Origin: Flavobacteriales bacterium | GTDB taxonomy: Bacteria > Bacteroidota > Bacteroidia > Flavobacteriales_G > JALEGO01 | Length of the DNA stretch: 39,739 bases | Assembly (NCBI GenBank): GCA_022763165.1 | Contig: JALEGO010000631.1 | Coordinates: forward strand, 1-39,739 | Direction: 5' to 3' | Part shown: in pieces, positions 2,372 to 20,694 of the stretch | How positions within the stretch are numbered: position 1 is the first letter of the stretch | Layout of the letters: every line of letters begins with the position of its first letter | The notes under the pieces: generated by a model | Seen by the model: only the letters and a program-made list of their open reading frames with translations | Told to the model about the DNA's origin: nothing | The model's database searches: none | Translations under genes and position numbers: made by a program

Positions 2372-2482
2372 GATGAAGTATTGAAAGAAACCGTTCAAAT
2401 TTAACTACAACTCTTCAAAACATGTCACAAATAATTCATTTTTTCATGAATTATGGCTCACTTCTACAAGCTCAGTCCGAAA

Positions 2483-3739: not shown

Positions 3740-3852
3740 TCTATCACTGAATCGATATATTAATTCGAAACATTAAATATACCAACTCTGTGAATATTAA
3801 AAAGGCCAAACTGAAGTTGATTCTTTAAAAAAACGAAAAAAGAATGAATCTT

Positions 3853-4809
3853 TCATTCCACTGCAATAGAATCTATTACATAGCTCTGTCCAGCAAAAAC
3901 CCCTATTCCATTTTCAATATTAGAATATACCTGAACCGGTTGTGCAAAAGGGTTGTCAACTGTATTCCAATATTTATTCAAGGACTCCTTATAGAGGTAA
4001 AGCTCCTTTGAGATGGAACTTAGTATAACATAAATCATCTCCTTTTTAAAGTTTGAAGCATAGCTTGTATCATTGGAAAAGTGCCACATACTGAGATTGA
4101 TATCCAATGTAGTTTCCCTTCCATTAAAATTCAAATCTGTAAAATTCAACCCTTGATCTCCAAAATACCACCCCTTCTCAAAAACATCTTCTCCCTGAGA
4201 GTTCTGCAAATCAAAATCTGTTGTGTGCATATCAAGAATTGTCTCATAACCTAAGGTTGAATCTAAAACGATCTGATTACCTTGATCATCCCAAATACTC
4301 TCATATTGTGTATACCTAGAAATGAAAGTAATATTATAATAATTCTCATCTTCTGGATCATTCAAACCAATAGAGATGTTTTTCAAAATCTCTCCTTCAA
4401 CGGAGACCGAACCAGTATCGATCTTACTTATCTCTATGGGCGTAGGTAATGCAGCTGAAGTCTCAATCAATGGAAAACCATCTGTCTCAATCCTCAAAGT
4501 ATACCTCTCGTTTAGTTTGGGGAATGCTGTCAATGAGCGATAGATACCATTTGTGAAGTACGAAAGGTCAATTTCATTTCCTTGATCAGAAACGATTTTG
4601 ACATTTGCATTGTCCACCCAAGCATACTGTGAAGTATCAAGAAGGTGTTTGCTTTTCGATACTTGAATCGACCACAAACTATCTTGCTTGAAGACGCCAT
4701 TTACGGCTATTTTAGGCTCTGATTCTTCAACATCAATTGGTATTTCTTTTTCACAAGAAAAAAAACTGAAGCAAATAACAAAAATGGTTGCTAAACAAAC
4801 TTTTGGCAT
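3853..4809 (-). CDS. DUF4249-like surface lipoprotein
   Basis: Lipobox FFS-C followed by EKE; DPEDENYY; C-terminal PVQVYSNIENGIGVFAG. Confidence 0.85.
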   Translation of the reverse strand: MPKVCLATIFVICFSFFSCEKEIPIDVEESEPKIAVNGVFKQDSLWSIQVSKSKHLLDTSQYAWVDNANVKIVSDQGNEIDLSYFTNGIYRSLTAFPKLNERYTLRIETDGFPLIETSAALPTPIEISKIDTGSVSVEGEILKNISIGLNDPEDENYYNITFISRYTQYESIWDDQGNQIVLDSTLGYETILDMHTTDFDLQNSQGEDVFEKGWYFGDQGLNFTDLNFNGRETTLDINLSMWHFSNDTSYASNFKKEMIYVILSSISKELYLYKESLNKYWNTVDNPFAQPVQVYSNIENGIGVFAGQSYVIDSIAVE

Positions 4810-4880
4810 GACATCGTAAAATTACGAATACAACGTCTAATTTTAAAAAAACTTATGTCATTCCACTGAATGATGCCTGG

Positions 4881-5861
4881 CTATTTGTTTATCTTGATTG
4901 AATCTGACACTGAACTATATCCCGCAAAAACGCCCAAACCATTGTGAATATTCGAATATACCTTAACTGGCTGCGCAGTAGGATCTCCTTTCGATGATAC
5001 TTGTTTGTCAAGTGTTGTATTGTATAAAAAATAGTCCTCTGAAAGAAAATTCATCGCATAAAACAGATAAGAATCTACTAATATCCCTCCTGTATTATCC
5101 AAAAACTGGCTTACATCATCTGGGTCCATCTCGAACTCCAAGGTCACGAATTGACCATCAAAAAATTCATCGGTGAAGTAGACGCCTTTGATGGAAGGAT
5201 ACCAATTCTGGCCCTTATCAACGGAAAACCCCGAATTCAAACGGACAATGGAATTTAAATCTGGGTCATTCACATACAAAGTAGGTACAGGAATTATTCC
5301 ATATGAGGTGTCAGAAAGACCATTCTCCAGGATATCGCTAACTTCACCAAGTATGTTCAAATAATAGAAAGAAATGTTGTAATAATTATCTTCTCCGGGT
5401 GGGTCTTGAAAACTCAAGTAGACACGATAACGTTCAGTTCCATCTGAACTTACATATGTTTCTTGACGCACATCAGTTAATTTTGGTTGAACAGGCACTT
5501 TATTAGTTGCCGACATAGAATTTCCATCAGGATCTTTAACGGAGATATAATACTCCACTCCGGGTCTTGGAGTTGAAAATTTTGAATAATAGAGTCCGTT
5601 TCCTTTGTTCAAAAGTCTCTCGGACCAACCAAAACCATTACTAATAGTAACTTCAGCATCATCCATTGTTACATTATCTTCATTAGATAACACACTTTTC
5701 GTTTGACTGATTTCCACATTCCATGGATGGTCGCTACTAAAAACACTGTTGACAACGGTTCTAGGAGGAATTTTATCTCCTTCAAAATCAAGTTCTTTTT
5801 GACAAGAACAAATAAAGATGAGCGGCAGCAAAATTGATGATATGACTGAAAGTTTGTTCAT
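4881..5861 (-). CDS. DUF4249-like surface lipoprotein (paralog)
   Basis: Lipobox ICS-C followed by QKE; DPPGEDNYY; PVKVYSNIHNGLGVFAG; 3 bp downstream of the TonB receptor. Confidence 0.85.
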   Translation of the reverse strand: MNKLSVISSILLPLIFICSCQKELDFEGDKIPPRTVVNSVFSSDHPWNVEISQTKSVLSNEDNVTMDDAEVTISNGFGWSERLLNKGNGLYYSKFSTPRPGVEYYISVKDPDGNSMSATNKVPVQPKLTDVRQETYVSSDGTERYRVYLSFQDPPGEDNYYNISFYYLNILGEVSDILENGLSDTSYGIIPVPTLYVNDPDLNSIVRLNSGFSVDKGQNWYPSIKGVYFTDEFFDGQFVTLEFEMDPDDVSQFLDNTGGILVDSYLFYAMNFLSEDYFLYNTTLDKQVSSKGDPTAQPVKVYSNIHNGLGVFAGYSSVSDSIKINK

Positions 5862-5864
5862 AGT

Positions 5865-8318
5865 TTAGAATTTGAATTTGTATGAAATGAATGGTATTAT
5901 TGGGAAAAGGCTGATCTGCTTCAATACCCTTTCATCTTGATCATTATATCCAAAAAATAGGTAAAAAGGATTCTGTCTGCTGTATACATTATATACACCA
6001 ACGCTGAGCGTCTCTTCGTATTTATCGCGAATCATATTGAAATTAACTGATAAGTCCAACCTATGGTAATCGGGCATTCTATAACCATTTCTTGATTGGA
6101 TGTATTCCACTTCACTTGTGCTAAAATAATTGGTCAGTTGGGATCCAAATGGACCTGTTGTATTGGCAGCCAGATATGTGGATACAGGCAGTGTCACTGC
6201 ATTTCCTGTACCGTATACCCACACAAGGCCAAGATCCATGCTTCTCTTGAAAGTCTTTAAGTCTCCAGTGGATTTGGACTTGATAACCTTGTCTGATCGG
6301 TTCACTTGGTAAGTGAGGGCTAAACCAATATCATGTCTTCTATCAAACTTGTAGGGAAAAGTCTGACCAAAATTTACATTTTCAAATTGTCTATTAGTCC
6401 AGGACAAAGTATAACCTATCCATCCGGATAATTTACCAAACTTCTTTTGAAGAAGTATTTCTGCACCATATGAATCGCCTTGCCCGATTTCTACTTTTTC
6501 CTGCCAATCTGTGCTTTGTGTAAAAAATGAAGCTCCATCTTTATACTCAATAAGGTTGTTCATTTGTTTGTAGTACCCTTCAATGCTTAGCTCATATTCA
6601 TCATTAATTGTCTTCGCAATGCCTATAGCGATTTGATCCGCGGTCATTGGAGGAATCGTATCGGTCACAGGCACCCACAAATCAGTAGGTAAACCTATTG
6701 TGGTGTTAGTTAATAAATGAATGTATTGTGCCATTCTGGAGTAGGAAGCCTTTAAAGACAAATCTTCCGTTAGCAAATAATTCATTGCTATTCTTGGCTG
6801 AGGATTGAAATATGTGGATCCCTTTACATTGAATGCCGATAGGTGAATTCCGATATTCGTTTTCAATCGTGCTCCAATTTTTATGTCATCCTCGACAAAA
6901 AAACCCATCTCATGTGCATAAATATTGCTCGACCCAAAGGAAGTGTCAATATTAAACTGAGATTCGGTATTTGAAAACTGGCTGGTGGTCACACCGGGTT
7001 CAAAAGCATGATAGATTTCTTGGAGTCCAATCTTAATGTAATGATTAGGATTTGGAATGTAGTCAAACTGAATACTTCCCGCCACATCATTAATGCCAGA
7101 ATAATATTCATACAAAAAGTCTTCATTTTCCACTCCGGTTGGAGTTGTAACGGAAGATCGTTGTTCATTACCAATAACAAACTGGTACTTACTGTAAGTC
7201 AGGGTGGTGTTCATGAATAATTTCTTATTGATAATAGAATTCCACCTCAATGCGGTCGTGATATTCCCCCATTTTAGCTTGGAGTCTGCGATGTCCTTTC
7301 GTTCCTGACCACCAAGACCATAAGTATCTTCATATTTACTATATGCTTTATCATCACCAGTGTAAGCACTCAGATATAATCGGTTTTTATCCGAAAACTT
7401 GTGATTAATCTTGGCGTTCAAATCATAAAAAAAGTAACCGCCATCTATCTTCTCATCACCTTGATTTGCCAATCCAATAAATGGCTTAGACAAAACATCA
7501 ATATAAGTCCTTCTCCCAGAAATAATGAATGAAGTTTTATCCTTCCATATAGGTCCTTCAAGCGCAAGTTTAGATGACACTAAACCTATTGATCCGCTAC
7601 CTTTAAATTCTTTCATATTGCCCTCTTTCATCCGGATATCGAGTACAGAAGACAATCTTCCGCCATATCGGGCTGGAAAACCTCCCTTGACTAATTCCAC
7701 TGACTTAACGGCATCAGGGTTGAAAACAGAAAAGAATCCAAAAAGGTGATTTGCATTGTAAACTGGGACTCCATCTAAGAGAATAAGATTCTGATCAGGT
7801 CCTCCGCCTCTGACATAAAGCCCACTAGTCCCTTCAGAACCCGATTGCACACCAGGCAACAGTTGAACCATCTTAATAATATCCCTCTCTCCCATGAAAG
7901 TCGGCAATACTTCAATTTGTTTCATTGGTATTTTGATCGTACTCATTTGAGTATTTTCATGGATCTTCTCAGATTTGGTGGCGGAAATCTCGACTTCCTT
8001 TAAATTCATAGAGGCACCCATGGGCATATTCAACTGAACATCCTTGGTCAAGTCCACCTTCATTTTGATGGGCTGGAAACCAACAAAGGACACAATAATG
8101 CTATAACTGCCCTCAGGAAGTGTGAGACTATAAAATCCATAAATATTTGATGTTGTTCCAGTCATACTTTCTTCATCATATATATTAGCCCCAATGAGTT
8201 TCTCTCCAGATTTTGCATCCTCTATATACCCACTGATCGTATACTTCTCCTGGGTATAACCAAAGGAGATATTTAATATCATAAGTATGAGTACAAGTTT
8301 TTTTCTGAGGCCTTTCAT
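5865..8318 (-). CDS. TonB-dependent receptor with N-terminal CarboxypepD_reg-like domain
   Basis: ISGYIEDAKSGEKLIGANI; plug LPGVQ...YVRGGGPDQNLILLDG, KGGFPARYGGRLSSVLDI; C-terminal Phe (YKFKF). Confidence 0.92.
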   Translation of the reverse strand: MKGLRKKLVLILMILNISFGYTQEKYTISGYIEDAKSGEKLIGANIYDEESMTGTTSNIYGFYSLTLPEGSYSIIVSFVGFQPIKMKVDLTKDVQLNMPMGASMNLKEVEISATKSEKIHENTQMSTIKIPMKQIEVLPTFMGERDIIKMVQLLPGVQSGSEGTSGLYVRGGGPDQNLILLDGVPVYNANHLFGFFSVFNPDAVKSVELVKGGFPARYGGRLSSVLDIRMKEGNMKEFKGSGSIGLVSSKLALEGPIWKDKTSFIISGRRTYIDVLSKPFIGLANQGDEKIDGGYFFYDLNAKINHKFSDKNRLYLSAYTGDDKAYSKYEDTYGLGGQERKDIADSKLKWGNITTALRWNSIINKKLFMNTTLTYSKYQFVIGNEQRSSVTTPTGVENEDFLYEYYSGINDVAGSIQFDYIPNPNHYIKIGLQEIYHAFEPGVTTSQFSNTESQFNIDTSFGSSNIYAHEMGFFVEDDIKIGARLKTNIGIHLSAFNVKGSTYFNPQPRIAMNYLLTEDLSLKASYSRMAQYIHLLTNTTIGLPTDLWVPVTDTIPPMTADQIAIGIAKTINDEYELSIEGYYKQMNNLIEYKDGASFFTQSTDWQEKVEIGQGDSYGAEILLQKKFGKLSGWIGYTLSWTNRQFENVNFGQTFPYKFDRRHDIGLALTYQVNRSDKVIKSKSTGDLKTFKRSMDLGLVWVYGTGNAVTLPVSTYLAANTTGPFGSQLTNYFSTSEVEYIQSRNGYRMPDYHRLDLSVNFNMIRDKYEETLSVGVYNVYSRQNPFYLFFGYNDQDERVLKQISLFPIIPFISYKFKF

Positions 8319-8639
8319 ATTGCTGTTTTCAGAAGGTAACAGTTGAATTTGCTAAATATTGTACGTCAGGATTTTACTAAAGGTTACAACATTTTAGAAT
8401 AAGATTTTAACAACTGTTGATATAAATGAAGTACTCAATATAATTTACGAAAAATTCACGAAAAAGAGAAGATAATTTTGAATATATTAACAAAATGAAA
8501 TTTAACATACACTGAAACGTTATTCCATTTATGCCTTAATAAACCAACTAAACTTTTGATTTAATATTCAAACCCAGAATCTAATTTTACTTTTTTATTA
8601 AAAAAACCAATTATTGCTTTTTCAGGTAGAAAATTGTAT

Positions 8640-8647
8640 TACTTTTG
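8640..8647 (+). promoter_or_regulatory. Bacteroidota sigma-A -7 element for the C10 protease
   Basis: TACTTTTG matches TAnnTTTG, ending 23 nt before ATG 8671. Confidence 0.55.
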
Positions 8648-8670
8648 CACTCCGAAAAGAACATTATGTC

Positions 8671-11316
8671 ATGAAAAAGTCATTAAAAGCCTTATTTCTT
8701 CTTGCACTATTAAGCATCAATTTGGTGCACGCAAGTAACGTACCAACGAGCGATGTCCTCAAAATAAGTGAGAACTATTATGCTAATGTCTCACCTACCC
8801 GAAACACTTCGTTTGTTGGGAACATTGCATTGACAATTTTTGAGAAGCAATCTCGATCAAATAACAGTCCATTGTTCCATGTTGTGAATGTAAATAATGA
8901 TGGGTTTGTGGTTGTGGCTGCTGATAATGAAGTTAAACCTATTCTGGGCTATTCAACAAATGGTCAATTCGATCCAAATAACATTCCTGTTCAATTGCAA
9001 GATTTGATCAATTCATGGCAAGAAGGTATTGAGCGTGAAATCAAAGACGCTATTCCGGCAAGCACCTATACAAGTAACCTTTGGACTCAAGCACTTCAAG
9101 GGTCCTTCTCAGGTTCTAGAAGTGGATCTGTAGCTCCTTTAACAACCACTACATGGAACCAATGGCCTCGTTATAATAAATTCTGCCCAGGAGGAGCTCC
9201 TACTGGCTGCGTTGCTACTGCCGTTGCGCAAATTATGAAATACCACAACCACCCTCCTCAAGGTTCTGGATCCCATTCTTATACACACCCTGATTACGGA
9301 ACGCTTTCTGCAAATTTCGGAGCTACGAGTTACGACTGGAGTGTTATGCCAAACAAATTGACTTCTTCGAGCTCTCAAAACGAAATAGATGAAGTAGCAA
9401 AAGTAAATTATCATATCGGTGTGAGTTTGGATATGGATTATGGACCAAATGGAAGCGCAACTTACAGCTACAAAGTAAGAAACGCCTTAAAAGATCACTT
9501 CAATTACAAAAACTCAGTTTCTTTAAAGTATCGTTACAGCTATTCTCTTTCAAGCTGGAAGAACATGCTTAAAAATGAATTGGATAACAACAGAGTTGTT
9601 TACCACTCCGGCTTTTGTCCTGATCCAGCTGCAGGACACGCCTTTGTGATTGACGGGTATGACACCAATGACATGTTTCATGTCAACTGGGGTTGGGGAG
9701 GCTCTTACAACGGTTATTTTGAAATCAATAACTTAAACCCTGGATCAACATACACATGGAATCAATCACAAAAAGCGATCATTGGCATTGAACCTATTCA
9801 AATGACACTTGATTTGAAACTTGCAGATGAAACACTTTATCATAGGGACACAACATATAATGATACAACATTGGTTTGGGATACGGTATTGTTACAATTC
9901 GACACTGTTTTAAACCCAATTACAGAGCACTTAGACACCTTTTCTTTTGACACAAGTATTGTAGACACTTTGGGATTGGTACAAGATTTTTCACTTACCA
10001 CGACAATTGGCAATTGGGGAAACATCTTTTATAACGGAAGATTTATGGCAGCAATCTGTGATTTAAATAATGTAATCATTGACACTGTTGAAATTTCTGA
10101 CACAGTGGGTATATCAGCCTACGATTACATGACCATTGTTTTTGAATCAAAGGCCAAATCATTGATGCCTGGAGATTATAAATTCTCAATCTTCTGGGAT
10201 GACAATGGCAGTTGGCAGCTAATTGACCAAGATTACTATTATAATGGAATACATTTTTACAACAATGGTGGTCAAACTGAACCTGAAGGTATATTGTCAT
10301 TTGGTTCTATTTCCATCAACCCAGACCCAATCTATGCGGATACTGCTTTTCAGGTAGAAATAATAGTCAAGAATAATCAAAACACGTCTTGGACAGGTTT
10401 GGTTTCTGCAGATTTTCACGAACTCAATGGAGACTGGTTAGATGAAATTGGGCATGTCAGCCGAACGTATCAACCATACGAAATAGATACTATCGTATTC
10501 AACGCCCCAGCTACAGATCTAGATCTTGGAGGATATCTAATAGGTATTTGGAACCAAGAACAAGGTTCAAATTGGGAAATGGTTAAAGAGGGATATTTCA
10601 AAAACAATAGGGAAGTACAAATCGTAGAAAAGGAATTTGCACTTGTACCTGATTCATACGAGGACAATAACAGCCCTCAAAATGCATATGATTTCTACAC
10701 CACTAGCTTATTCAACAACAACGCTGCGCTGATTTATACAAACAGTACTAACATTCATAATGAGCTTGATCAGGATTACTTCCGAGTAAATTTTGAGGCT
10801 GGATATACATATGAAATCACTCCAATCCTATTTGATGCTAGCGCACCAAACGCTCCAAAGGATTACACCCTTGAGGCGGTATTCTCATATGGTGTCAACA
10901 CGAACCCGACACTTCAGTATTATGATAATGAGGAGGTGGGAAGTATATCAATTGATGGAGACGGGTTTGTCTCATTTCATGTACAACCTTACTTCCAAAA
11001 TGCAATGGGAACATATAATCTTCAATTCCAAATCACAAGAACACCTAATTTCACTAATGATCTTTCAGCCGTGAACAGTTCCGAAAGTGTGAACATTTAC
11101 CCCAATCCAAATAACGGTCAATTTACCATTGCAAATATTTCCCAATGGAATTCAGCAAGTATCTTTGACGCTAATGGCAAATTGGTTTATACATTTGCCA
11201 ATCTTAAAAATGAATTGATTGAGGTGAATCTTTCAGACAAACTAAATAAAGGAATCTATTCGATCCGACTGGAATCTGAAGATAAAGTTTACAACGAAAG
11301 GTTTATCATAAAATAA
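8671..11316 (+). CDS. C10 (streptopain/SpeB-like) cysteine protease with propeptide, Ig-like domains and T9SS type A CTD
   Basis: PTGCVATAVAQIM (catalytic Cys), GHAFVIDGY (His), HVNWGWGG; propeptide GFVVVAADN..PILGYS; signal peptide from ATG 8671; YPNPNNG CTD. Confidence 0.92.
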   Translation: MKKSLKALFLLALLSINLVHASNVPTSDVLKISENYYANVSPTRNTSFVGNIALTIFEKQSRSNNSPLFHVVNVNNDGFVVVAADNEVKPILGYSTNGQFDPNNIPVQLQDLINSWQEGIEREIKDAIPASTYTSNLWTQALQGSFSGSRSGSVAPLTTTTWNQWPRYNKFCPGGAPTGCVATAVAQIMKYHNHPPQGSGSHSYTHPDYGTLSANFGATSYDWSVMPNKLTSSSSQNEIDEVAKVNYHIGVSLDMDYGPNGSATYSYKVRNALKDHFNYKNSVSLKYRYSYSLSSWKNMLKNELDNNRVVYHSGFCPDPAAGHAFVIDGYDTNDMFHVNWGWGGSYNGYFEINNLNPGSTYTWNQSQKAIIGIEPIQMTLDLKLADETLYHRDTTYNDTTLVWDTVLLQFDTVLNPITEHLDTFSFDTSIVDTLGLVQDFSLTTTIGNWGNIFYNGRFMAAICDLNNVIIDTVEISDTVGISAYDYMTIVFESKAKSLMPGDYKFSIFWDDNGSWQLIDQDYYYNGIHFYNNGGQTEPEGILSFGSISINPDPIYADTAFQVEIIVKNNQNTSWTGLVSADFHELNGDWLDEIGHVSRTYQPYEIDTIVFNAPATDLDLGGYLIGIWNQEQGSNWEMVKEGYFKNNREVQIVEKEFALVPDSYEDNNSPQNAYDFYTTSLFNNNAALIYTNSTNIHNELDQDYFRVNFEAGYTYEITPILFDASAPNAPKDYTLEAVFSYGVNTNPTLQYYDNEEVGSISIDGDGFVSFHVQPYFQNAMGTYNLQFQITRTPNFTNDLSAVNSSESVNIYPNPNNGQFTIANISQWNSASIFDANGKLVYTFANLKNELIEVNLSDKLNKGIYSIRLESEDKVYNERFIIK

Positions 11317-11377: not shown

Positions 11378-12898
11378 TCAATTGACAATCTCGATTCTCC
11401 TTAAGACAGGCAACTCACCGAATTGTTCTATTTTGATAAAATATAGGCCTGAGGCAAGTTGATGATTCAACCGAGCATAATTATTTTTTAATTGTCTTTT
11501 AAACTTCAATTGACCTTGAAGATCAAAGATTTCCACTAAGCCCAATTCATGACCAGCAGTAATGTTGATGAAACCACTGCTAGGATTAGGGAAAATGTTA
11601 AACCTTTCTGAATGGTATGCGTCTATGTTTACCGTTGAACACTCTGAGCCAGCCCCTATCCACACAACTGAATCGAGAAAAGCGCAGCCTGCAGAGTCAA
11701 CAATAGTTGCGACCAAGACCGGACTACTCTGACTACCAGTATACAGAGACCAAACGGAGTCAGAGTGAGACAAAACAGTATCTGGCCACCAAGAAATTGA
11801 ATATGGGTGGCGATTGCCAATGATTTGAGTTGAAATGAAAGGCTGATTAGCTGTAGAATCGCAACCTGTCTGAACTTGGATACTAGGAGGGATAGGCGCT
11901 GGAACAAATATCGAGTCAATTTTCACACATCCATTTCCATCAGTAACGGTTAAATAATACATTATCTCTGTACAAAATCCTATAGGGTTTGAAATAGTCG
12001 CAGAGGTTAAACACCCGCTTGGAGACCAATTATAAATATAAGGGGCGACACCATTTGAAGCTGTTGGGTTTCCACCAAGGATAAAAGTACCGCCCGTACA
12101 TAGAACATCGCCAGGATCCAGTTGAACATTGCAATTGGAAATCAAAGAATCACAGTTTTGAGGAATTGGCCAATCCCAACCCACTATAGTATCTTGAATG
12201 GAAAAGCCAGAAACTGCTGAGAATTGAGCATCACAAATTGATGAGTTGAACAAAAAAGTCCAAGACCTATTAAAAAAGCAACCATTTAGACAGTCTCCCC
12301 AACCCAACTTAAAAGTTAACTGATTTCCATTGATTTGAATCTCATTATCTTCACCGAAATAAGGATTTGTGGTGCAATAAACAACTCCTGAAACCGTATC
12401 CAGCATACTTACCAATGCAGACACGTTTACCGTATCATTTAGGTCTATTACATGAAATGCTCCAGAAGCAGAAGCGAATATATTATAATTAAAAAAAGAT
12501 AAAAGACTATCCACAAAAGCATTACCACTTTGATTTCCTGCCAACAAGTTTTGAACCCATGCCTGATTCGTATCAAACTTTATCGTCAATTGGTGCAATA
12601 CAATATCAGGACGGTCGTGTATACAATATATCGCAAAGACAGAGTCTCTTTCAGGAGAAGGCAAATTATAAATGCTCGTTAAAGCATCCCAAACATGATT
12701 TTCAATCCAACTTGGTATAAAGATTGAGTCCTGAAGACCAATTTGGTTCATGTAATCTACTGAGATACTTTTGACATCAGCTTGGTAATTGGATAGTATA
12801 AAACCTGGAATGGTGCAACTTGTTTGAGCGTTAATTTCAGCCAACGAAATATTAAAAAAGATCAAAAAGATACATGGTCGAATGAGGTGAAAGTTCAT
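11378..12898 (-). CDS. Uncharacterised T9SS type A cargo protein
   Basis: Signal peptide; GWGDCLNGC motif; LGGNPTA..G.APY.YNWSP repeat shared with the next gene; FPNPSSG CTD. Confidence 0.8.
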   Translation of the reverse strand: MNFHLIRPCIFLIFFNISLAEINAQTSCTIPGFILSNYQADVKSISVDYMNQIGLQDSIFIPSWIENHVWDALTSIYNLPSPERDSVFAIYCIHDRPDIVLHQLTIKFDTNQAWVQNLLAGNQSGNAFVDSLLSFFNYNIFASASGAFHVIDLNDTVNVSALVSMLDTVSGVVYCTTNPYFGEDNEIQINGNQLTFKLGWGDCLNGCFFNRSWTFLFNSSICDAQFSAVSGFSIQDTIVGWDWPIPQNCDSLISNCNVQLDPGDVLCTGGTFILGGNPTASNGVAPYIYNWSPSGCLTSATISNPIGFCTEIMYYLTVTDGNGCVKIDSIFVPAPIPPSIQVQTGCDSTANQPFISTQIIGNRHPYSISWWPDTVLSHSDSVWSLYTGSQSSPVLVATIVDSAGCAFLDSVVWIGAGSECSTVNIDAYHSERFNIFPNPSSGFINITAGHELGLVEIFDLQGQLKFKRQLKNNYARLNHQLASGLYFIKIEQFGELPVLRRIEIVN

Positions 12899-13013: not shown

Positions 13014-15893
13014 CTAATCAAGTATTTCAATCCTCTTAACAATAGGCTGATCCTTATCTTGACCTACAATTTTCAAGAAATAGATACCTGCTGGAAGCGA
13101 ACTATTCAAAACAACATTCTTGGACATCAATTGGCTTTGATACTCAATTTGACCTAGCGCATTGACAATTTCCAAACTAGTGATAAAATCACTTGACTGG
13201 ATATTGATTTGCCCTTTGCTTGGGTTGGGGTAAACCGAGATGAAAGGTTTGTTCAGTTGATCATTTTCTCCACCTTCAAGAATAATAATGCTTTTATTGT
13301 TAGTACCTACTTGTAAAGGATAGCCACTTTCATTATTTGCAGAATGCACCACTATCTCCAAGCTTAAAGTGTCTACAACAATCTCAGAAGCTCCAGTTAA
13401 GTCATCCGCTGTTACAATTTCTAAGGCTCCTATTTGACCATTTCCCGCACTCGCAATTTGATCTGTTTTGGTAATCGCTATATCAATCTTGCCTTGAGCT
13501 GTGAAATTGGTATCCACATCTATTCTTGTGGATGGAGAACCAATCCAAGAAGTAGTATAGCTCAATGTCATGTTGCTGGTGTCGACCAAATCGTTATTGT
13601 AAAGAATAGAGAAGGCCAAACCATAAATACTATCAGCCGGCAAAGTGTTCGTACCAAGATGGATGGGTATAATCAACGATTGATTTTCACCTACTGTATC
13701 AAAATTTGGCCAATCAAAAAACAATACTGGATCAGTAGCACTTGCTAAATCATCGGTTTTATTATGTGTAAGGCCATAGTTCAACAAGACTGCATTGAGA
13801 TCATTAAGATCGACCAGTCCATCCCCATTACAATCAGCATGTTTTTGATTCAAGCCGCTGAGGAATTGACCAGACCAATCTCCAGCAGCTTGTGGAAGCC
13901 AATTGACTGATGCATTAGGGCGAGTCAAACCTGCACTATTGTAAGCAACACCAATATTCAACACATCAACAATATCCGCTACACCATCAGAATTCGCATC
14001 TCCTGGCCACACGGAGTCCAAAGGAACAGTGCACACCTCAATAGAGTCGACATCAAAACAGCCATGAAGAGTATCTTGAACAGTCAAGGTATATACTATG
14101 GTATCTGAAGGACAAGAAATTGGATTTGCAATAGAATCATCATTCAAATCAATGTCTGGAGACCAAGTATAAGTAGTGTTTGGCAAAGTATTGAAGGGAC
14201 CAATCTGAACACAACCACCAATACTTACGCAAGCATCAGGTCCAGCATCAGCCTGAATATTATAACATTCAATATAAATGGAATCCACATCAACACAGCC
14301 ATTATCATCGGTTACGCTAAGAACATAAGTTGTATCACAAGCAAACCCAATTGGATTCCCAATAGTAGCGTCATTTAGCAGTGAGGCTGGAGACCATGCG
14401 AAATTATATGGGGGTGTACCTCCAATAGCTGGATTGAGCCCTCCGAGAACGAATGTTCCAGGACAAATAGTATCATCTGCGCCTGCATCAGCTTGCAGTG
14501 AGGTCGCACAGGACACGTAAATACTATCAGTTCCTGTACAGCCATTGGCATCTGTCACACTCACGGTGTACATTGTATCACAGCCGGATGTAATTGGATT
14601 TGCAGTGTTCACGTTAGTTAAGGACCATGATGGCGTCCAGAGGTAAGAGTACGGAACCACTCCACCAACAGCAGTAGGGCTTCCTCCAAGTTGTACAGTT
14701 CCACCAGAACATACATTTGGGGAACCTGCATCCACCGTAATTCCAGAAACGTGGACAAAGTAACTTTTTGACGTATGCCCAACATAAGGACAGACAGAAT
14801 CACTTACCGTTAATGTAAATGATAGAGTAGTGTCATTTGCTGGTGCAGTAAACGAAATATCTACCAAAGCAGAATTACCACTGTAGTTTACATTGAAATT
14901 GGCACCTTGTATTCCGCCATCCCAAATCACTCCTATATTATCAGGATCTGGATCGCTTACGCCAATAGTTAAATTAACCTGAGAATTGGCACAAACTGCA
15001 GTATCAACATTTGAAAAATTCGAATATGAAGTATCAACTCCAGACAAAACTGGGGAGGCATTCACACAATTAATGATAAAATACACCATATCTCTTCGAA
15101 TGAAACCAATTTTCTGCCCATTTCGGTACTCCTCCACCTCCACGGCCATATTGGATACCACCAAATTGTTTGATGTAAAGCAGACCAAACCCGTCAAGGA
15201 ATCAATGCTAAAATTACTAGCACTGTTAGCAGCGATAGGTGAGCTAGTCGAATGACCAGGTGTATAGGAAATTGGTGTGTTTAACGCTGTCAGAGATGGC
15301 ACTACTTTGTAAACTAAAGAATCTCCATCAACATCAAATGCTTTCAAGTTGAGGCAGTTTTGAACAATTCTGCAATTGATAATATCCGGATCTTGCAAAA
15401 AGCTTGGAGAGTTATTGCATATATTATTATCAATCACAACGTTCAAATATGTATTCTGAGACTGCGGATTATTAATATTTGTTATCGATGGTAGCCTACA
15501 ACAATTGGAATATTCAACCAACCAATCGTTTGAGACACCACTCAATACTATCGTATCTTTAAAAGTATTTTTAATCGTTCCTGGATATGCAGATCCCAAA
15601 TTTGAACAAACCGTGGTCACCGCTGTACATGTTTTTGTGATTTCCATGGTATCTGTAAGGTAGAGATAGACATTGTTTGAAACACCCAAGCTACTTGAAG
15701 AAACTGAAACCAGTTGGCTATCGGCCAGAAAAGTGGCAGAGCACTCCCAGTAAAGATCTAAGGTGATTTCGTACGTGTTGCTTCCTAAACACCGATAAGT
15801 CATTTCACCTCCATTGAGATGTGACGCATGAACATTGAATGATACTATTAAACAAATTGCGCTAAGAATGTGAATTAGTCTAGTCATAAACAT
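13014..15893 (-). CDS. T9SS cargo: Cys-rich N-terminal domain, beta-sandwich repeats, dockerin-like and cohesin-like domains, type A CTD
   Basis: ASHLNGGEMTYRC start; three DAG...Y.W.P repeats; GDANSDGVADIVD and ADCNGDGLVDLND Ca-binding pair; YGLAFSILYN cohesin-like segment; YPNPSKG. Confidence 0.82.
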   Translation of the reverse strand: MFMTRLIHILSAICLIVSFNVHASHLNGGEMTYRCLGSNTYEITLDLYWECSATFLADSQLVSVSSSSLGVSNNVYLYLTDTMEITKTCTAVTTVCSNLGSAYPGTIKNTFKDTIVLSGVSNDWLVEYSNCCRLPSITNINNPQSQNTYLNVVIDNNICNNSPSFLQDPDIINCRIVQNCLNLKAFDVDGDSLVYKVVPSLTALNTPISYTPGHSTSSPIAANSASNFSIDSLTGLVCFTSNNLVVSNMAVEVEEYRNGQKIGFIRRDMVYFIINCVNASPVLSGVDTSYSNFSNVDTAVCANSQVNLTIGVSDPDPDNIGVIWDGGIQGANFNVNYSGNSALVDISFTAPANDTTLSFTLTVSDSVCPYVGHTSKSYFVHVSGITVDAGSPNVCSGGTVQLGGSPTAVGGVVPYSYLWTPSWSLTNVNTANPITSGCDTMYTVSVTDANGCTGTDSIYVSCATSLQADAGADDTICPGTFVLGGLNPAIGGTPPYNFAWSPASLLNDATIGNPIGFACDTTYVLSVTDDNGCVDVDSIYIECYNIQADAGPDACVSIGGCVQIGPFNTLPNTTYTWSPDIDLNDDSIANPISCPSDTIVYTLTVQDTLHGCFDVDSIEVCTVPLDSVWPGDANSDGVADIVDVLNIGVAYNSAGLTRPNASVNWLPQAAGDWSGQFLSGLNQKHADCNGDGLVDLNDLNAVLLNYGLTHNKTDDLASATDPVLFFDWPNFDTVGENQSLIIPIHLGTNTLPADSIYGLAFSILYNNDLVDTSNMTLSYTTSWIGSPSTRIDVDTNFTAQGKIDIAITKTDQIASAGNGQIGALEIVTADDLTGASEIVVDTLSLEIVVHSANNESGYPLQVGTNNKSIIILEGGENDQLNKPFISVYPNPSKGQINIQSSDFITSLEIVNALGQIEYQSQLMSKNVVLNSSLPAGIYFLKIVGQDKDQPIVKRIEILD

Positions 15894-16027
15894 ATACTCG
15901 TTGGTTACAATACAAATATTCGAAATCTATGCTTTCCAAAAAAATACAATTACTTTAATTTGTGGGTTATTATAACTAAATTTAAATATCTAATTAATTA
16001 TTATATAGTTTTTTATACTTAAAATTT

Positions 16028-17422
16028 GTGGATCATATTATATTCGAACATATTAGAAAATTTGACAAAAAAGATTGGAAGTCTTTCAAAACATTTGTTT
16101 CATCACCTTACTTTAACAAAAACAAGAGAATCGTACAATATGTCGAATTCCTGGCTTTAAACCCAAGTTTAAATGACAAAAATGCACTTTTTCGTGCTGC
16201 ATTTCCTGAAAGAAAACATTATAACGATTCAAGTTTAAGATCCATTCACAGCGAAATCCTTCAGCTCATTCTGAAGTTTTATCAAATTGAAAAACTGAAT
16301 GACTCAGATAAAGCGACATCATTAGATATTCTTGTACAAAAGGATCAGTTTAGAACTTACCAATTGATCAAAAACCGATGGCTGAAGCGCTCCGAGAATG
16401 GACTGCAAGATGAAAAATTCTTTCGCTCAAAATTAGAAATGAGCAAGATTCACTATGAATTCTTAAGCAGGAAAGAACAAAGGAAAAGCGAGGTTCTCGA
16501 TCAGGCGTTGTTAGATGTCAACTACAACTTAGACCAGCTCTATTTAGTAGAAAAACTACAATTGCTTGCCGAAATGCAAAATAGAGGCATCTCAGAAAAT
16601 GAGTCCATTACTCTTCTTGAACTCAAGACTATTCTCAACAAACCCATCAACAGAAACAATCAATTCATCCAAATTTTCACTGAAATCCTGACACTTTTAA
16701 GCGATCACGCTGAAAAATCATTTTTTGGGGTTTACGAACTCATCAAAAAGGAAAATCAAAAATTCTCAAAAAAGGAATTAAAGGATATGTTTGAATACAT
16801 TCAAAACTTTTGTATCCGAAAAATCAATCAATGAAATGATCATTTTTTGGAAGAACTGTACAAAATCTACAAATACCAACTTGAAGAAGAAATCAACGTA
16901 GAGAATAACAAAATGAGAATTAGTGACTTTAAGAATATTGCCACATTAGGAATTAGACTTAAAGATTTAGATTGGGTAAGGCATTTTACAAACGAACATA
17001 AAGACAAACTCGACCTGAGGTATCAACAAAGTGCTGAGGCCTACAATTTGGCAAGAATCGATTTTTACAAAGAAGAATACAGCGCTGCTCGAAAAAAATT
17101 AGTCAATGTTGAATATGCAGATATTCATTATGAACTTGGAAGCAGAGCCTTACTTATAAAAATCTATTTTGAAACTACGGATTCAGAATTGATGCTACAG
17201 AACCTAAATTCATTGAAGCTTTTTGTCAGAAGATCAAGATTAATCTCCGATTATCAAAAAAGAATCTATTTAAACTTCTTGAAATGCATTCACAAAATGA
17301 ACCGACTCATTGATGGCGATAAAAGAGTCACCGAAACGCTCGACCATTTGATATATGAAGACAAAGCCATTGCAGACTATACTTGGGTTCGCAAGAAGTA
17401 TGAAGAAATAAAAAGCCTCTGA
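16028..17422 (+). pseudogene. Winged-helix/TPR-like putative regulator interrupted by in-frame TGA at 16832-16834 (ORFs 16028..16834 and 16847..17422)
   Basis: Both ORFs share one frame; read-through gives 464 aa colinear with the paralog at 19324..20694 (NFCIRKINQ*NDHFLEELY vs NFCVKQINANNTKYYVELF). Confidence 0.8.
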
Positions 17423-17441
17423 TTACTCAGAGGCTCTTTTA
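17411..17441. terminator. Probable bidirectional intrinsic terminator
   Basis: AGCCTCTGA-ttac-TCAGAGGCT stem flanked by A-run and T-run between convergent genes. Confidence 0.7.
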
Positions 17442-17489
17442 ACCTATTGCTTTATTAGATTGATTTAAATCATTTAAACCAAGTAGACT

Positions 17490-19181
17490 TTATCTCTTTA
17501 CAACACGATGATGCAAAGTATTCGACCCACTACTGATCTCCAAGAAATAAAGACCCGCATCCACTTCCTCAAGATTGCAAACACCTTGATTCATATATTC
17601 TGATCTCTTTACAACCTTACCATTTAGATCCATTAAAGACCAGCTAAAAGTTTCTTGCGATGCAATATTTAGAACACCACTTGTCGGATTTGGAAAAACT
17701 TTAAAGAGCGCTTCAACATTAGAACTCAAACTAAGTGGCGCACCTTCCTGCGAAACAGTAACAGAATCAGAGACTACATTAACATCAACCACACTTTCAT
17801 CAGCGCGGATCAGCTTAACATTGGTTATGGTGAATTTTAAACTCTCATAGATATTCGTTTTACCAGCGATATCGTCTGTAGTAAAAATGTCAATCTCAGC
17901 AATTTCACCGAAACCTGATTTGTTTACTTTATCAGTTCTGGTCAAAGCTATGTCTAATTGACCATCCTGGTACAGATTCTTATCAAGAGCAATCATATCA
18001 TTGGCGTTAGAAATATTTCCCAGCCAAGAATTCCCATAACTCACAGCAACTGATGATGAATCCACCAAAGCCGGATCATAACTCAAACTGAAGGCTATTC
18101 CATACACGCTATCCGCAGGCAACACAGACTCTCCAAGTTTTACTTTTATATTTACCCAGCTATTGGTATCTACGGTATCCGGAGATGCTTCAAGAATCAA
18201 ATTCACCGCATTCTGATGAAAAGCCGGAGCATCACCTTTAAACCATGTTTTTCCATAATTCAATAAAATCGCCTGTGCATCTAAAACATTTATCGTTCCA
18301 TTACCATCGCAATCCCCATGCTTCTTGCTATAACCATTCGCAAAAGGACCATTTTGATTCCAAATTCCACTCTGCGAGTATTGGCCAACCCAATTCAAAC
18401 TCGCATTTGGTCTCGGCCAATTTTGATAACTGCTTTCCCCATAAGCAACACCTATATTCAGCAAGTCAAAAACGTTGGCCACCTTATCAACATTACAGTC
18501 TCCCGGAAACACAGAGTCATGCGGAAGTATGTGAGTAAATAAATTCAGGCAACCGTTACTATCGTATATATGATACTCATTACACCCCGGCCCTAGATAT
18601 TGTATGTAAACCGTATCGTTGGCAGATGTCACTGATTGATTGCCCTGTTGAAAACCATTACAATCTTCAACAAAAACAACATACCCAGGAGCCCCTCCTG
18701 TCAAACCCAATGTGATATCACCACCATAAGGGGTATGATATGGGTTATAGTCAATGACATCTATTGTTAGAGGGTTTGAACACCCAGAATTCCCTTGAAC
18801 TGCGAACAACACTAACACCGTGTCGATCACAAAAAACCCATTAATGGAATCCCCATAACAGTATTCATAAAATATAGAATCCAAACCCACAAAGCCAGTA
18901 GGAGGAGTATATTGAAATTCCCAAGGCGCCAAGTTCACAAGAGCACCACCCTCTGCTGTAATATTTGCACCATTGCTGGACCAAATAGAGCAGGCGGCCG
19001 CAGAGGATGTATCATCATTCAATCCAATATTTACATTTATAGGTGTATTCATTTGAGTAATGAAGTGGTCATCGCCACTCCATGTAGCATTAGCATTCTT
19101 AGCAAATAGAACTATCATTAATGCCCATACTAAAGTGAGTAATTGTTTTCTCATAACTAATTTATTAAACGTTGTTTTCAT
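17490..19181 (-). CDS. T9SS cargo: Ig-like domain, dockerin-like and cohesin-like domains, type A CTD (start 19181 or 19154)
   Basis: Signal peptide MRKQLL...ANA; GDCNVDKVANVFD and GDCDGNGTINVLD; YGIAFSLSYDP cohesin-like segment; FPNPTSG. Confidence 0.82.
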   Translation of the reverse strand: MKTTFNKLVMRKQLLTLVWALMIVLFAKNANATWSGDDHFITQMNTPINVNIGLNDDTSSAAACSIWSSNGANITAEGGALVNLAPWEFQYTPPTGFVGLDSIFYEYCYGDSINGFFVIDTVLVLFAVQGNSGCSNPLTIDVIDYNPYHTPYGGDITLGLTGGAPGYVVFVEDCNGFQQGNQSVTSANDTVYIQYLGPGCNEYHIYDSNGCLNLFTHILPHDSVFPGDCNVDKVANVFDLLNIGVAYGESSYQNWPRPNASLNWVGQYSQSGIWNQNGPFANGYSKKHGDCDGNGTINVLDAQAILLNYGKTWFKGDAPAFHQNAVNLILEASPDTVDTNSWVNIKVKLGESVLPADSVYGIAFSLSYDPALVDSSSVAVSYGNSWLGNISNANDMIALDKNLYQDGQLDIALTRTDKVNKSGFGEIAEIDIFTTDDIAGKTNIYESLKFTITNVKLIRADESVVDVNVVSDSVTVSQEGAPLSLSSNVEALFKVFPNPTSGVLNIASQETFSWSLMDLNGKVVKRSEYMNQGVCNLEEVDAGLYFLEISSGSNTLHHRVVKR

Positions 19182-19311
19182 TTTTTGGAAGCTTTTCACT
19201 CTACAAATATTTACATACTCTAGCTGCAAAAAAATTACAAATTTTAATATATGTGTCTTAAATATTTCAAATAAAAAATCATTAATATTTGAATTACAAT
19301 ATTTTATGTTC

Positions 19312-19319
19312 TAATTTTG
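19312..19319 (+). promoter_or_regulatory. Bacteroidota -7 element immediately before TTG start
   Basis: TAATTTTG ends 4 nt before start 19324. Confidence 0.5.
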
Positions 19320-19323
19320 TATC

Positions 19324-20694
19324 TTGAAAAATTCCAATTTATATAGTTTATTATCCAGTTTCAATAAAGAAACCTGCAAAAAATTTCAAGATTTCTTAAA
19401 ATCTCCCTACCTAAACACGAATAACAAAGCCACACAATTATTCGAGCTCTATCTCAAAACACCAGAAAAGAAACTAGAAAAACCCTTCCTGCACAACAAA
19501 CTCTATCCGAATGAAGATTTTAAGGATGACAAACTACGTTTAGTCATTAGCCGTCTATACAATCTAGCTTTAGAATTCCTCAGATTAGAGGGATTCAGAC
19601 GAACAAAAACCTCTCAACATCTCCTGCTGCACGAACTAAATCTTTTAAATCAATATAAGATCTTTGACCAACAATATCGTAAAGCCAACAACACGAGTCT
19701 TCTTGAAACCCTACAACTAGAAGAAGCAAACTTCTACCTGGCAACAAAAATTAACCCAAGACAATCCACAAACAACCTACAGGAACTTAGCAACTCCATT
19801 GATGATTACTTCCTGTTTCAAAAACTTAAGTATTCCTGTGAACTGTACAACAGAAAACAAATTCTAGATAAAGAATATGACTTTTCATTTCTAGAAAACA
19901 TCTTACAATATTTACACAATCACCCCCCAAAATATCCTCCAACCTATTTATACTATCAACTTCTCAAACTCATCAGAGCGAATGAAGAACCTCAATTCTT
20001 CCTGATCAAAAAGTTACTCCAAACCCAATCCAAAGAAGTTCACAAAAAGGAATTAAAGAATATGTACGTGTTCTTGATGAACTTTTGCGTAAAACAGATC
20101 AACGCCAATAACACCAAATACTACGTTGAGCTTTTTGACATATATAAATCACTGATTAAAAATGAGATTATTATTGAAGAAGAAACCATAGGCCTGGGAG
20201 ACTTTAAAAATATAGCGACTGTTGGACTGAGACTGAAAGAACTGGACTGGGTGCAAGAATTCACAGAACAATACACATCATATTTAAATGAACAGCATCA
20301 AGAAAGCGCAAAATCTTATAACCTTGCGCGAATATGTTTTGTCAGATCAAATTATAAAGATGCTCTAAAACTGCTCCGAAACGTTGATTACAGCGATGTG
20401 TATTTTGAGTTAGGCTCCAGAGTGCTTTTGCTTAAAGTTTACTATGAACAGGAGGATATCGATCTGTTTCCCGCTCAAATGCAGTCATTGAGAACCTATT
20501 TATCCAGATCAAATGAAGTTTCCGATTATCAGAAAAGCCTTTATCTTAATTTTCTCAGATTAATAAAGAAACTGTTTCGGTTTAAAGGAGGTAATAAAAG
20601 AGGCCTAAAAGAATTTAAGGAAGAACTTAAACAAACAAGTAACGTGGTGGACCTTGAGTGGATTAAAGAGAAAGCCATGGAATTTAATTTTTGA
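19324..20694 (+). CDS. Uncharacterised ~456-aa helical protein, putative wHTH+TPR transcription regulator
   Basis: FL.SPY.N N-terminal motif; FLHNKLYPNEDFKDDKLRLVISRL resembles an OmpR/SARP recognition helix; C-terminal YNLARI.F...Y..A TPR-like helices; no signal or TM segment. Confidence 0.75.
   Translation: MKNSNLYSLLSSFNKETCKKFQDFLKSPYLNTNNKATQLFELYLKTPEKKLEKPFLHNKLYPNEDFKDDKLRLVISRLYNLALEFLRLEGFRRTKTSQHLLLHELNLLNQYKIFDQQYRKANNTSLLETLQLEEANFYLATKINPRQSTNNLQELSNSIDDYFLFQKLKYSCELYNRKQILDKEYDFSFLENILQYLHNHPPKYPPTYLYYQLLKLIRANEEPQFFLIKKLLQTQSKEVHKKELKNMYVFLMNFCVKQINANNTKYYVELFDIYKSLIKNEIIIEEETIGLGDFKNIATVGLRLKELDWVQEFTEQYTSYLNEQHQESAKSYNLARICFVRSNYKDALKLLRNVDYSDVYFELGSRVLLLKVYYEQEDIDLFPAQMQSLRTYLSRSNEVSDYQKSLYLNFLRLIKKLFRFKGGNKRGLKEFKEELKQTSNVVDLEWIKEKAMEFNF

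Follow-up and report, generated by a model that had tools for sequence, protein, structure and literature searches.

Two genes for helical proteins in a 39,739-nucleotide (nt) stretch of Flavobacteriales DNA (all of contig JALEGO010000631.1, assembly GCA_022763165.1; hereafter the window) each stand head to head with a gene for a predicted cargo protein of the type IX secretion system (T9SS), and the same arrangement recurs in many other genomes. The pairing of the two genes, which we call HEL (the helical protein) and cargo, is certain, and a functional link between HEL and the gene it faces is very likely. The best single reading, to which we assign a probability of about one half, is that HEL is a cytoplasmic one-component regulator dedicated to the facing secreted-protein gene. 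We prefer this reading because the pair is divergent with a short shared spacer, because HEL combines an N-terminal domain resembling a helix-turn-helix (HTH) with a receptor-like tetratricopeptide repeat (TPR) array, and because the spacers carry cassette-specific motifs.

HEL genes face genes for secreted proteins

Within the window, a cargo gene on the minus strand followed by a HEL gene on the plus strand occurs twice in tandem between positions 13014 and 20694; the map of open reading frames (ORFs) thereby bears out the gene order given in a prediction made earlier from the sequence (the original prediction). CargoA (13014-15893, minus strand, 959 aa) is separated from HEL1 (16028-17422, plus strand, 464 codons) by the 134 nt of spacer A (15894-16027), measured between the divergent start codons. 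CargoB (17490-19181, minus strand, 563 aa from an ATG at 19181) lies opposite the intact HEL2 (19324-20694, plus strand, 456 aa), and the spacer B between them (19182-19323) has 142 nt if cargoB starts at that ATG. The cargoB frame is open as far as a first TTG at 19229 (17490-19229, 579 aa); the ATG is the likely start because a promoter-like block sits within this longest open frame. The ends of HEL1 and cargoB are 67 nt apart.

The two HEL proteins align over their full length with 30% identity (139 of 457 columns, E 2e-73), and the shared motifs from which the original prediction had called them paralogs are visible in this alignment. Their cargos were said to be alike at the C-terminal end and unlike at the N-termini, and this holds as well: the alignment is limited to the C-terminal ~360 residues (35% identity, E 2e-55), and no alignment of the N-terminal parts of cargoA and cargoB was obtained. 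The window pairs are not mutual nearest relatives; each has closer relatives on other contigs, so that they are not a recent tandem duplicate. Neither a signal peptide nor a membrane segment was detected in HEL, and the maximum 19-residue Kyte-Doolittle means of HEL1 and HEL2 (0.89 and 0.54) leave no hydrophobic segment.

Both cargo proteins, in contrast to HEL, have a signal-peptide-like N-terminus, and at the C-terminus each carries a T9SS type A sorting domain. Specifically, PF18962 scores 40.6 bits in cargoA and 46.6 bits in cargoB against a cut-off of 27 (E 3.2e-10 and 4.2e-12), and TIGR04183 scores 40.3 and 41.8 bits against a cut-off of 23 (E 2.3e-10 and 7.8e-11); the domains lie at 13050-13235 (residues 887-948 of cargoA) and 17502-17699, both on the minus strand. 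Next to them stands a shared module (cargoA, 13380-14027; cargoB, 17715-18539; minus strand), defined by module alignment and by tblastn between the two copies (43% identity, E 4.8e-48). It starts with two EF-hand-like loops of the calcium-binding type (PGDANxDG..., DCNGDG...), which are followed by a beta-rich, cohesin-like region. The original prediction had called this module a dockerin plus a cohesin. For the window copies alone the label does not reach the Pfam gathering scores (Cohesin, PF00963, 16.3-19.3 against 24.1 bits, E 0.0013-0.012; Dockerin_1, PF00404, ~12 against 22.9 bits, E 0.24-0.28). It fares better across the 18 aligned module copies of the genome, among which Cohesin matches 10 (best E 2.3e-7) and Dockerin_1 matches nine (best E 1.7e-5), while a module profile run against the PDB finds EF-hand proteins from E 3.8e-5 and the ScaH dockerin (8ajy) at E 8.4e-5. 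At the level of the family, it is fair to describe these proteins as combining dockerin and cohesin in a single chain, followed by a C-terminal sorting domain (CTD). The variable N-terminal region of cargoA (~620 aa) has weak Ig/PKD/SprB-like matches, and that of cargoB a weak Big_9 match.

Sixteen HEL paralogs, 28-42% identical to HEL2, are encoded in the genome (809 contigs totalling 5.5 Mb; completeness 86%), and ORF maps place 14 of the 16 opposite a divergent gene with a signal-peptide-like start. On contig C284 the facing ORF has 195 aa and a large T9SS gene lies downstream; contig C7 ends 354 nt past the HEL start, with the cassette promoter pattern described below present and pointing outward. 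The module is found in all 10 complete HEL partner genes and in two partners truncated at contig ends. One of these is cut within the module. The other, on C549 (1-1267, minus strand), ends with TQPYAPQYM, the residues that open a truncated gene at the end of C802 (9951-11096, minus strand), where its module lies; owing to these shared residues, the two contigs probably join within one cargo gene. By comparison, the module is missing from the neighbouring T9SS genes that have no HEL (8614-11316 and 11378-12898 in the window, and the large gene on C284). With tblastn, 20 module copies are found in the genome, eight of them not beside a HEL: four are cut at the 5' side by contig ends, one stands in tandem after another module gene, and three (on C226, C176 and C381), which are the most divergent copies, have ordinary neighbours. 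HEL and cargo module have diverged together: across 11 pairs, distances among HEL proteins correlate with distances among partner modules (r = 0.53, reached by 41 of 10,000 Mantel permutations). As a separate observation, two long proteins (C439:8409-10262 and C381:463-2352) have C-termini that look LuxR-type-HTH-like by eye, and the C439 gene lies directly downstream of a HEL gene.

HEL is a very large family. Searching 50%-identity cluster representatives with HEL2 gave 7,798 matches at E <= 1e-3 and 1,837 at E <= 1e-30. Among 301 genomes sampled evenly across the phylum, 14 (this one included) have a HEL match at E <= 1e-10, and the positive genomes cluster in few families (for example 5/5 genomes in family f7 and 3/3 in f9). 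HEL occurs in Bacteroidota and Ignavibacteriota, and several Bacteroidota families carry the arrangement. The 33 word-indexed HEL relatives had no Pfam domain, and their sole names were 'hypothetical' and, once, 'TPR repeat protein'. Likewise, no description of the family or of the gene pair was found in the literature as far as titles and the openings of abstracts tell.

We determined the gene context of HEL in two sets of loci. The first comprised 37 loci from the 13 other positive genomes, in which HEL, module and CTD were called with hidden Markov models built here; the CTD model being home-made, CTD counts are lower bounds. Genes of at least 150 aa at the same loci, neither HEL themselves nor with HEL as upstream neighbour, served as controls. 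A divergent upstream ORF was present for 40/43 HEL genes compared with 74/245 controls, and this ORF carried a CTD or module in 24/43 compared with 0/245; it had a signal-peptide-like start in 29/43 and the module in 9/43. One of the three non-divergent exceptions, at locus L052, comes down to a small, spurious ORF that overlaps a cargo gene with the module. The second, independent set came from a pattern scan of species-representative genomes, which returned 350 stretches, 330 of them encoding relatives; we used the best 80 loci, whose titles name Saprospiraceae, Lewinella, Chitinophagales, Vicingaceae, Flavobacteriales, Sphingobacteriales and Phaeodactylibacter. They contain 81 HEL genes of at least 300 aa, and 76 were counted after setting aside five that had no upstream ORF on the locus. 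Of these, 72 had a divergent neighbour (controls, 63/290) and 61 a neighbour with CTD or module (controls, 0/290); the module was present in 47/76 neighbours and a signal-peptide-like start in 58/76. Control genes at the same loci thus diverge at an ordinary rate of 22-30%. Random gene context among homologs, which the original prediction had named beforehand as its refutation, was not seen, and the uncharacterised cassette family that it proposed is real and conserved far beyond the window.

Partner proteins range from ~265 to ~1,950 aa, their N-terminal parts are unrelated, and some, which are lipoprotein-like, have no CTD. As the dockerin/cohesin module is missing from many partners in other genomes, the association is with secreted proteins generally: HEL faces a secreted-protein gene, and the dockerin/cohesin/CTD type is commonest among close relatives of the window HEL. 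The cassette is also present in a cultured strain, Lewinella cohaerens DSM 23179 (locus L141), which makes the question directly testable. Tandem arrays recur beyond the window, since locus L070 of genome G079 has three HEL genes within 7.4 kb (1037-8398), each opposite a small secreted or lipoprotein-like gene (288-624 aa) of its own. A search of 6,154 candidates with lengths of 799-2,280 aa turned up no fused, longer form of HEL, which is weak evidence.

A pairing of this kind could also arise with no functional link, inherited through repeated duplication of a two-gene segment. The correlated HEL and module distances are what pairs copied as units would show, and many of the copies sit on short contigs of one genome. 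However, the arrangement is kept even though the copies of this genome are down to 28-42% protein identity, it is shared by several families whose partner genes differ in length and have unrelated N-termini, and control genes of the same loci show only the ordinary rate of divergence. We therefore regard co-duplication alone as highly improbable.

Predicted structure of HEL and its relation to known families

Sequence searches placed HEL in no known family: HEL2 and both pieces of HEL1 matched no family in Pfam or NCBIfam, save a chance-level FNG match, and no PDB entry by sequence. AlphaFold2, given a 75-sequence alignment, folds HEL2 as an all-helical protein of 23 helices (mean predicted local distance difference test score, pLDDT, 94.4; predicted template-modelling score, pTM, 0.87). 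In this model HEL is a small N-terminal helical domain (residues 1-93, 19324-19602) followed by a long TPR-like superhelix (residues 94-456, 19603-20691). Foldseek with the whole model returned generic TPR proteins alone (best E 3.2e-3). VIA-align against 48,161 chains ranked RapI (4i1a) first, with Z 14.4, a root mean square deviation (rmsd) of 5.2 Å and 289 aligned residues, a score to be read against the best chance score of ~14 that helical models typically reach with this tool. Next came Rap phi105 (13.5), Rap pLS20 (13.2), RapH (13.1), NprR (11.9), PlcR (11.1) and AimR (10.3); generic TPR proteins scored 10-12.

These top ranks point to the RRNPP regulators of Firmicutes, phages and plasmids (Rap, NprR, PlcR, PrgX, AimR), which are the best structural matches to HEL residues ~94/127-456 (Z 10.3-14.4, set against a chance level of ~14 for helical models). 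They share with HEL a cytoplasmic location, a comparable size and a layout in which a TPR superhelix comes after a small N-terminal domain, helical or HTH, and an AimR cluster is among the nearest named clusters to HEL in the ESM Atlas, at a weak score of 0.76. HEL differs from them in several respects: there is no sequence similarity (no Pfam family), its taxa are Bacteroidota and Ignavibacteriota, its partner is a large T9SS cargo gene, and no adjacent propeptide gene was recognised, as the gaps and the stretch after HEL2 hold mechanically called ORFs of 20-57 aa, none with an evident signal peptide. The N-terminal domain of HEL, moreover, appears closer to sigma region 4 than to the XRE-type HTH of RRNPP proteins (Z 4.7-6.5, below the noise level of the tool).

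Folded alone, HEL2 residues 1-126 (46 sequences) again gave a confident model without beta strands (pLDDT 91.2). With VIA-align, whose noise level is 7-8, residues ~10-93 matched sigma-H (3mzy) at Z 6.5 (rmsd 2.2 Å, 69 aligned), ahead of SigR region 4 (5fgm, 6.3), CnrH (4cxf, 6.1), SigW (5.8) and sigma-E region 4 on DNA (2h27, 5.7). The domain also matched DNA-binding domains of the OmpR, LuxR, ToxR and Fur types; judged from entry titles, sigma factors and regulator DNA-binding domains make up 42 of the 50 best analogues. Region 4 of sigma-70 factors of the extracytoplasmic function (ECF) type is thus the best fold analogue (Z up to 6.5, noise 7-8). HEL differs from sigma factors in having no region 2 and in consisting mostly of a TPR domain, which sigma factors do not have. 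Homology to region 4 at the sequence level was considered and rejected: PF08281 matched 32 places in the genome, none within a HEL gene, and hhalign of the HEL N-terminal profile against 24 sigma region 4 sequences of the same genome gave a probability of 1.2%.

The original prediction had looked to a DNA-binding fold as support for a regulator, and here the outcome is divided. The part that stands is the confidently predicted N-terminal bundle of ~93 residues, with its predominance of DNA-binding and sigma-factor analogues; the part that does not is confirmation by score or by sequence, as the Z-scores lie below noise and Foldseek, Pfam, PDB-profile and hhalign searches came back empty. Other properties of the domain suit a regulator. 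It is mildly basic across the family (net +3.2 per ~96 aa, compared with +0.6 per 100 aa in the TPR part). Among paralogs, mean pairwise identity is lowest in the N-terminal part and in residues 94-190 (24-25%) and highest in residues 281-380 (41%). Regulators with different DNA targets and a common effector surface would fit this contrast between a variable N-terminus and a conserved distal TPR region, which falls short of proof.

The same superhelix is open to another account, in which HEL is a cytoplasmic protein-binding factor, such as a TPR-type chaperone, a targeting adaptor or a quality-control protein, that holds the cargo precursor or links it to the Sec or modification machinery. TPR superhelices are typically protein- or peptide-binding scaffolds, and the structural matches include a type III needle chaperone (2uwj, Z 10.2), the EccA1 N-terminal domain (4f3v, Z 10.3) and PilF/PilW. 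The co-divergence of HEL and cargo module would suit a protein contact, as would conservation that peaks in TPR residues 281-380 (41%, compared with 24-25% at the N-terminus). However, dedicated chaperones are normally co-transcribed with their substrate, and HEL is divergent from its partner in 40/43 and 72/76 cases. In addition, the export signal is the sole domain common to partners across genomes, 19 of the 43 HEL genes in the 13-genome set are without a divergent partner carrying CTD or module, with the module itself limited to nine, and T9SS cargo passes the inner membrane unfolded, via Sec. We consider such a role unlikely. A complex prediction of HEL2 with the cargoB module scored 0.00 ('no answer') and counts neither way.

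Spacer elements and the case for a dedicated regulator

On the minus strand, spacer A carries TGTATTTTTTTG at 15948-15937 and AATATTTGTA at 15920-15911, 19 nt before the cargoA ATG, and spacer B carries TGTAATTTTTTTG at 19239-19227 and AATATTTGTA at 19211-19202; on its plus strand, spacer B has TAATTTTG 13 nt before the HEL2 start. The minus-strand elements belong to a shared block upstream of the cargo start, which consists of TGTAWTTTTTTTG, a gap of 15-19 nt and AATATTTGTA(A/T)TGT and is found in 7 of 14 spacers of the genome, plus the truncated copy on C7. The second element lies ~19-22 nt before the ATG in both window copies. Bacteroidota promoters have the consensus -33 TTTG / -7 TAnnTTTG, and the spacer block reads like an extended version of it. 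As a composite pattern, the block has 11 sites in the 5.5 Mb genome, eight of them at cassettes, a partly circular count, since these spacers also served to define the pattern. Outside this genome it was seen in 6/106 HEL spacers in cargo orientation, in 0/106 in the opposite orientation and in 0/438 controls. Half-motifs of the block on C310, C526, C708, C2, C303, C329, C615 and C684 were in no case at a HEL or module gene.

An unbiased k-mer comparison brought out another element, CCGATAAA, present in 21/106 HEL spacers compared with 1/438 controls; in HEL orientation it reads TTTATCGGA(T/A)T. Its core, TATCGG[AT], is found in HEL orientation in 27/106 spacers and in the opposite orientation in 2/106, with 20/416 in controls when both strands are counted. 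At least two direct copies are present in 8/106 spacers, 65-182 nt apart (four of them at 99-101 nt), one copy near each gene. In this genome TATCGG occurs in 1/14 spacers. Collectively, these patterns show that cassette-specific, oriented cis-elements exist and differ by lineage, as candidate operators, promoter elements or leader RNA elements. A different kind of repeat is seen at locus L051 (G167), where the 887-nt spacer between HEL and a 1,486-aa module-bearing gene holds several copies of the ~17-nt GTTACCGACACCTAAAC, some with a reverse complement; this resembles a small repeat or hairpin element that was inserted into the cassette spacer.

The strand bias of TATCGG[AT] (27/106 compared with 2/106) is also compatible with an RNA element in the leader of HEL, and HEL might then be a post-transcriptional regulator, a PPR/TPR-like RNA-binding protein (PPR, pentatricopeptide repeat) acting on a 5' leader, either that of the cargo mRNA or that of its own mRNA. 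PPR proteins do appear in the structure list, namely a designer PPR protein (5iww, Z 10.8) and mitoribosomal PPR proteins. Their scores, however, are no higher than those of generic TPR proteins, and in spacers with two motif copies the cargo-proximal copy would lie upstream of a HEL transcript that starts near HEL. We think this reading quite improbable.

Direct repeats bring to mind the SARP/AfsR activators, which join a DNA-binding domain to helical repeats (BTAD), are encoded beside their targets and bind direct repeats near -35. HEL is like them in having a helical-repeat domain after a DNA-binding-like domain, the AfsR entries 8hvr and 8jke appear in the N-terminal match list at Z 4.8, and the TATCGG[AT] direct repeats of 8/106 HEL spacers may be likened to SARP sites. 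HEL is unlike them in that its N-terminal model has no strands and hence no wing, in that Pfam finds neither Trans_reg_C nor BTAD, and in belonging to another phylum. HEL was accordingly not assigned to the SARP family, having no Pfam family and a strandless N-terminal model. By every sequence test HEL stands outside the RRNPP, SARP and sigma families; by analogy, it may work like RRNPP or SARP proteins.

In the preferred reading, that of a dedicated regulator, the N-terminal domain of HEL would bind spacer DNA and the TPR domain would receive a signal, either a ligand or a protein. Occupancy of the spacer by HEL would then alter transcription of the cargo gene, and probably that of HEL itself, whether HEL acts as activator or as repressor. 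The original prediction had specified an activator. The evidence supports this neither way: the cargo promoters already resemble good Bacteroidota promoters, so a repressor would suit equally. With 16 pairs in this genome, such regulators would let the cell choose which surface proteins are displayed, with distinct N-termini on a common dockerin/cohesin/CTD stalk. A more specific version, which we offer as a speculation with little chance of being right, is that HEL is a Gram-negative counterpart of RRNPP in Bacteroidota and Ignavibacteriota that does without a separate propeptide gene. It would sense an export or assembly cue of its own neighbour, for example a peptide from T9SS sorting-domain cleavage, and feed back on the spacer, so that the 16 cassettes would form a self-monitoring display switchboard.

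Several observations weigh against a dedicated regulator. Among the cis-elements, the composite pattern count is partly circular as stated, no spacer motif is common to all lineages, and the cargo promoters look complete without an activator. Palindromic operators in the 14 genome spacers were searched for and rejected, since the arm sum of 88 compares with a dinucleotide-shuffle mean of 85.0 and is reached by 82 of 300 shuffles. As regards the protein, Pfam and NCBIfam show no DNA-binding domain in HEL, a PDB profile search with HEL reached a best E of 0.38, hhalign to sigma region 4 gave the low probability quoted above, and Foldseek with the N-terminal domain found nothing (best E 1.7). The N-terminal Z-scores of 4.7-6.5 are under the noise level, none reaching 8, and the 14.4 of the TPR part is a typical best chance score, so that both would indicate likeness rather than proof. 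As regards the genes, HEL1 has a stop codon in the assembly, and three or four module-bearing genes of the genome have no HEL neighbour. Finally, Fisher P-values for the pairing overstate the case because paralogs and related genomes are not independent; the effect itself is large and consistent despite kinship among the sampled genes.

For Bacteroidota, T9SS cargo proteins, which include adhesins, enzymes and gliding proteins, form the main toolkit at the surface and among secreted products. Known regulators, the PorX/PorY two-component system and SigP, are global regulators of the secretion machinery, and to our knowledge T9SS regulation has been described for that machinery as a whole only, not for single cargo genes. 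HEL shares with PorX/PorY and SigP a concern with T9SS-related gene expression, if it is a regulator, and differs from them in being multi-copy, with one copy per cargo gene. Here, a very large family without a Pfam or NCBIfam model is tied one-to-one to single cargo genes, often with dockerin and cohesin on one chain. Should HEL proteins prove to be dedicated regulators, they would constitute a new class of one-component switches and would give a handle on the choice of surface display in marine and soil Bacteroidota; they would also offer dozens of regulator-promoter pairs per genome, possibly orthogonal, for Bacteroidota genetics.

The stop codon in HEL1 and neighbouring genes

In the assembly, HEL1 is split into ORFs of 268 and 191 aa by an in-frame TGA at 16832-16834, a feature absent from the original prediction. 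The codon falls in a Gly column that is nearly invariant in the family (HEL2 position 262), and a single change, GGA to TGA at 16832, accounts for it. TGA is an ordinary stop in the window, where it ends 8 of 23 ORFs, both HEL genes included; recoding or an alternative genetic code was rejected on this ground. For the same reason, the HEL1 stop is either a nonsense allele of very recent origin, present alongside an intact one, or an assembly or read error. One 151-base contig of sequencing run X2 has G at 16832, restoring GGA, at a depth of 2, where differences (depth <5) may be errors. Contigs of run X1, in which 95% of the words sampled are present and which is possibly the source sample, stop at 16796 and restart exactly at 16833; a branching variant site would give this pattern, though it is no proof. 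A second broken or polymorphic copy in the family is a HEL paralog with one internal TAA in another genome (G079:C1:304267-305664, locus L034/L067).

Upstream of the tandem pairs, the gene at 8614-11316 (plus strand) encodes a secreted protease of 900 aa with a Peptidase_C10 (streptopain-like) domain (E 1.9e-63), an Inhibitor_I69 propeptide (E 1.1e-17) and a T9SS sorting domain. It is followed at 11378-12898 (minus strand) by the gene for a 506-aa T9SS cargo that has neither a dockerin/cohesin module nor a HEL partner. Together with cargoA and cargoB, the window thus has four consecutive T9SS cargo genes. By eye, the product of 11378-12898 and the middle of cargoA have Cys-rich repeats in common (GG..LGGNPTA..G..PY.Y.W.P).

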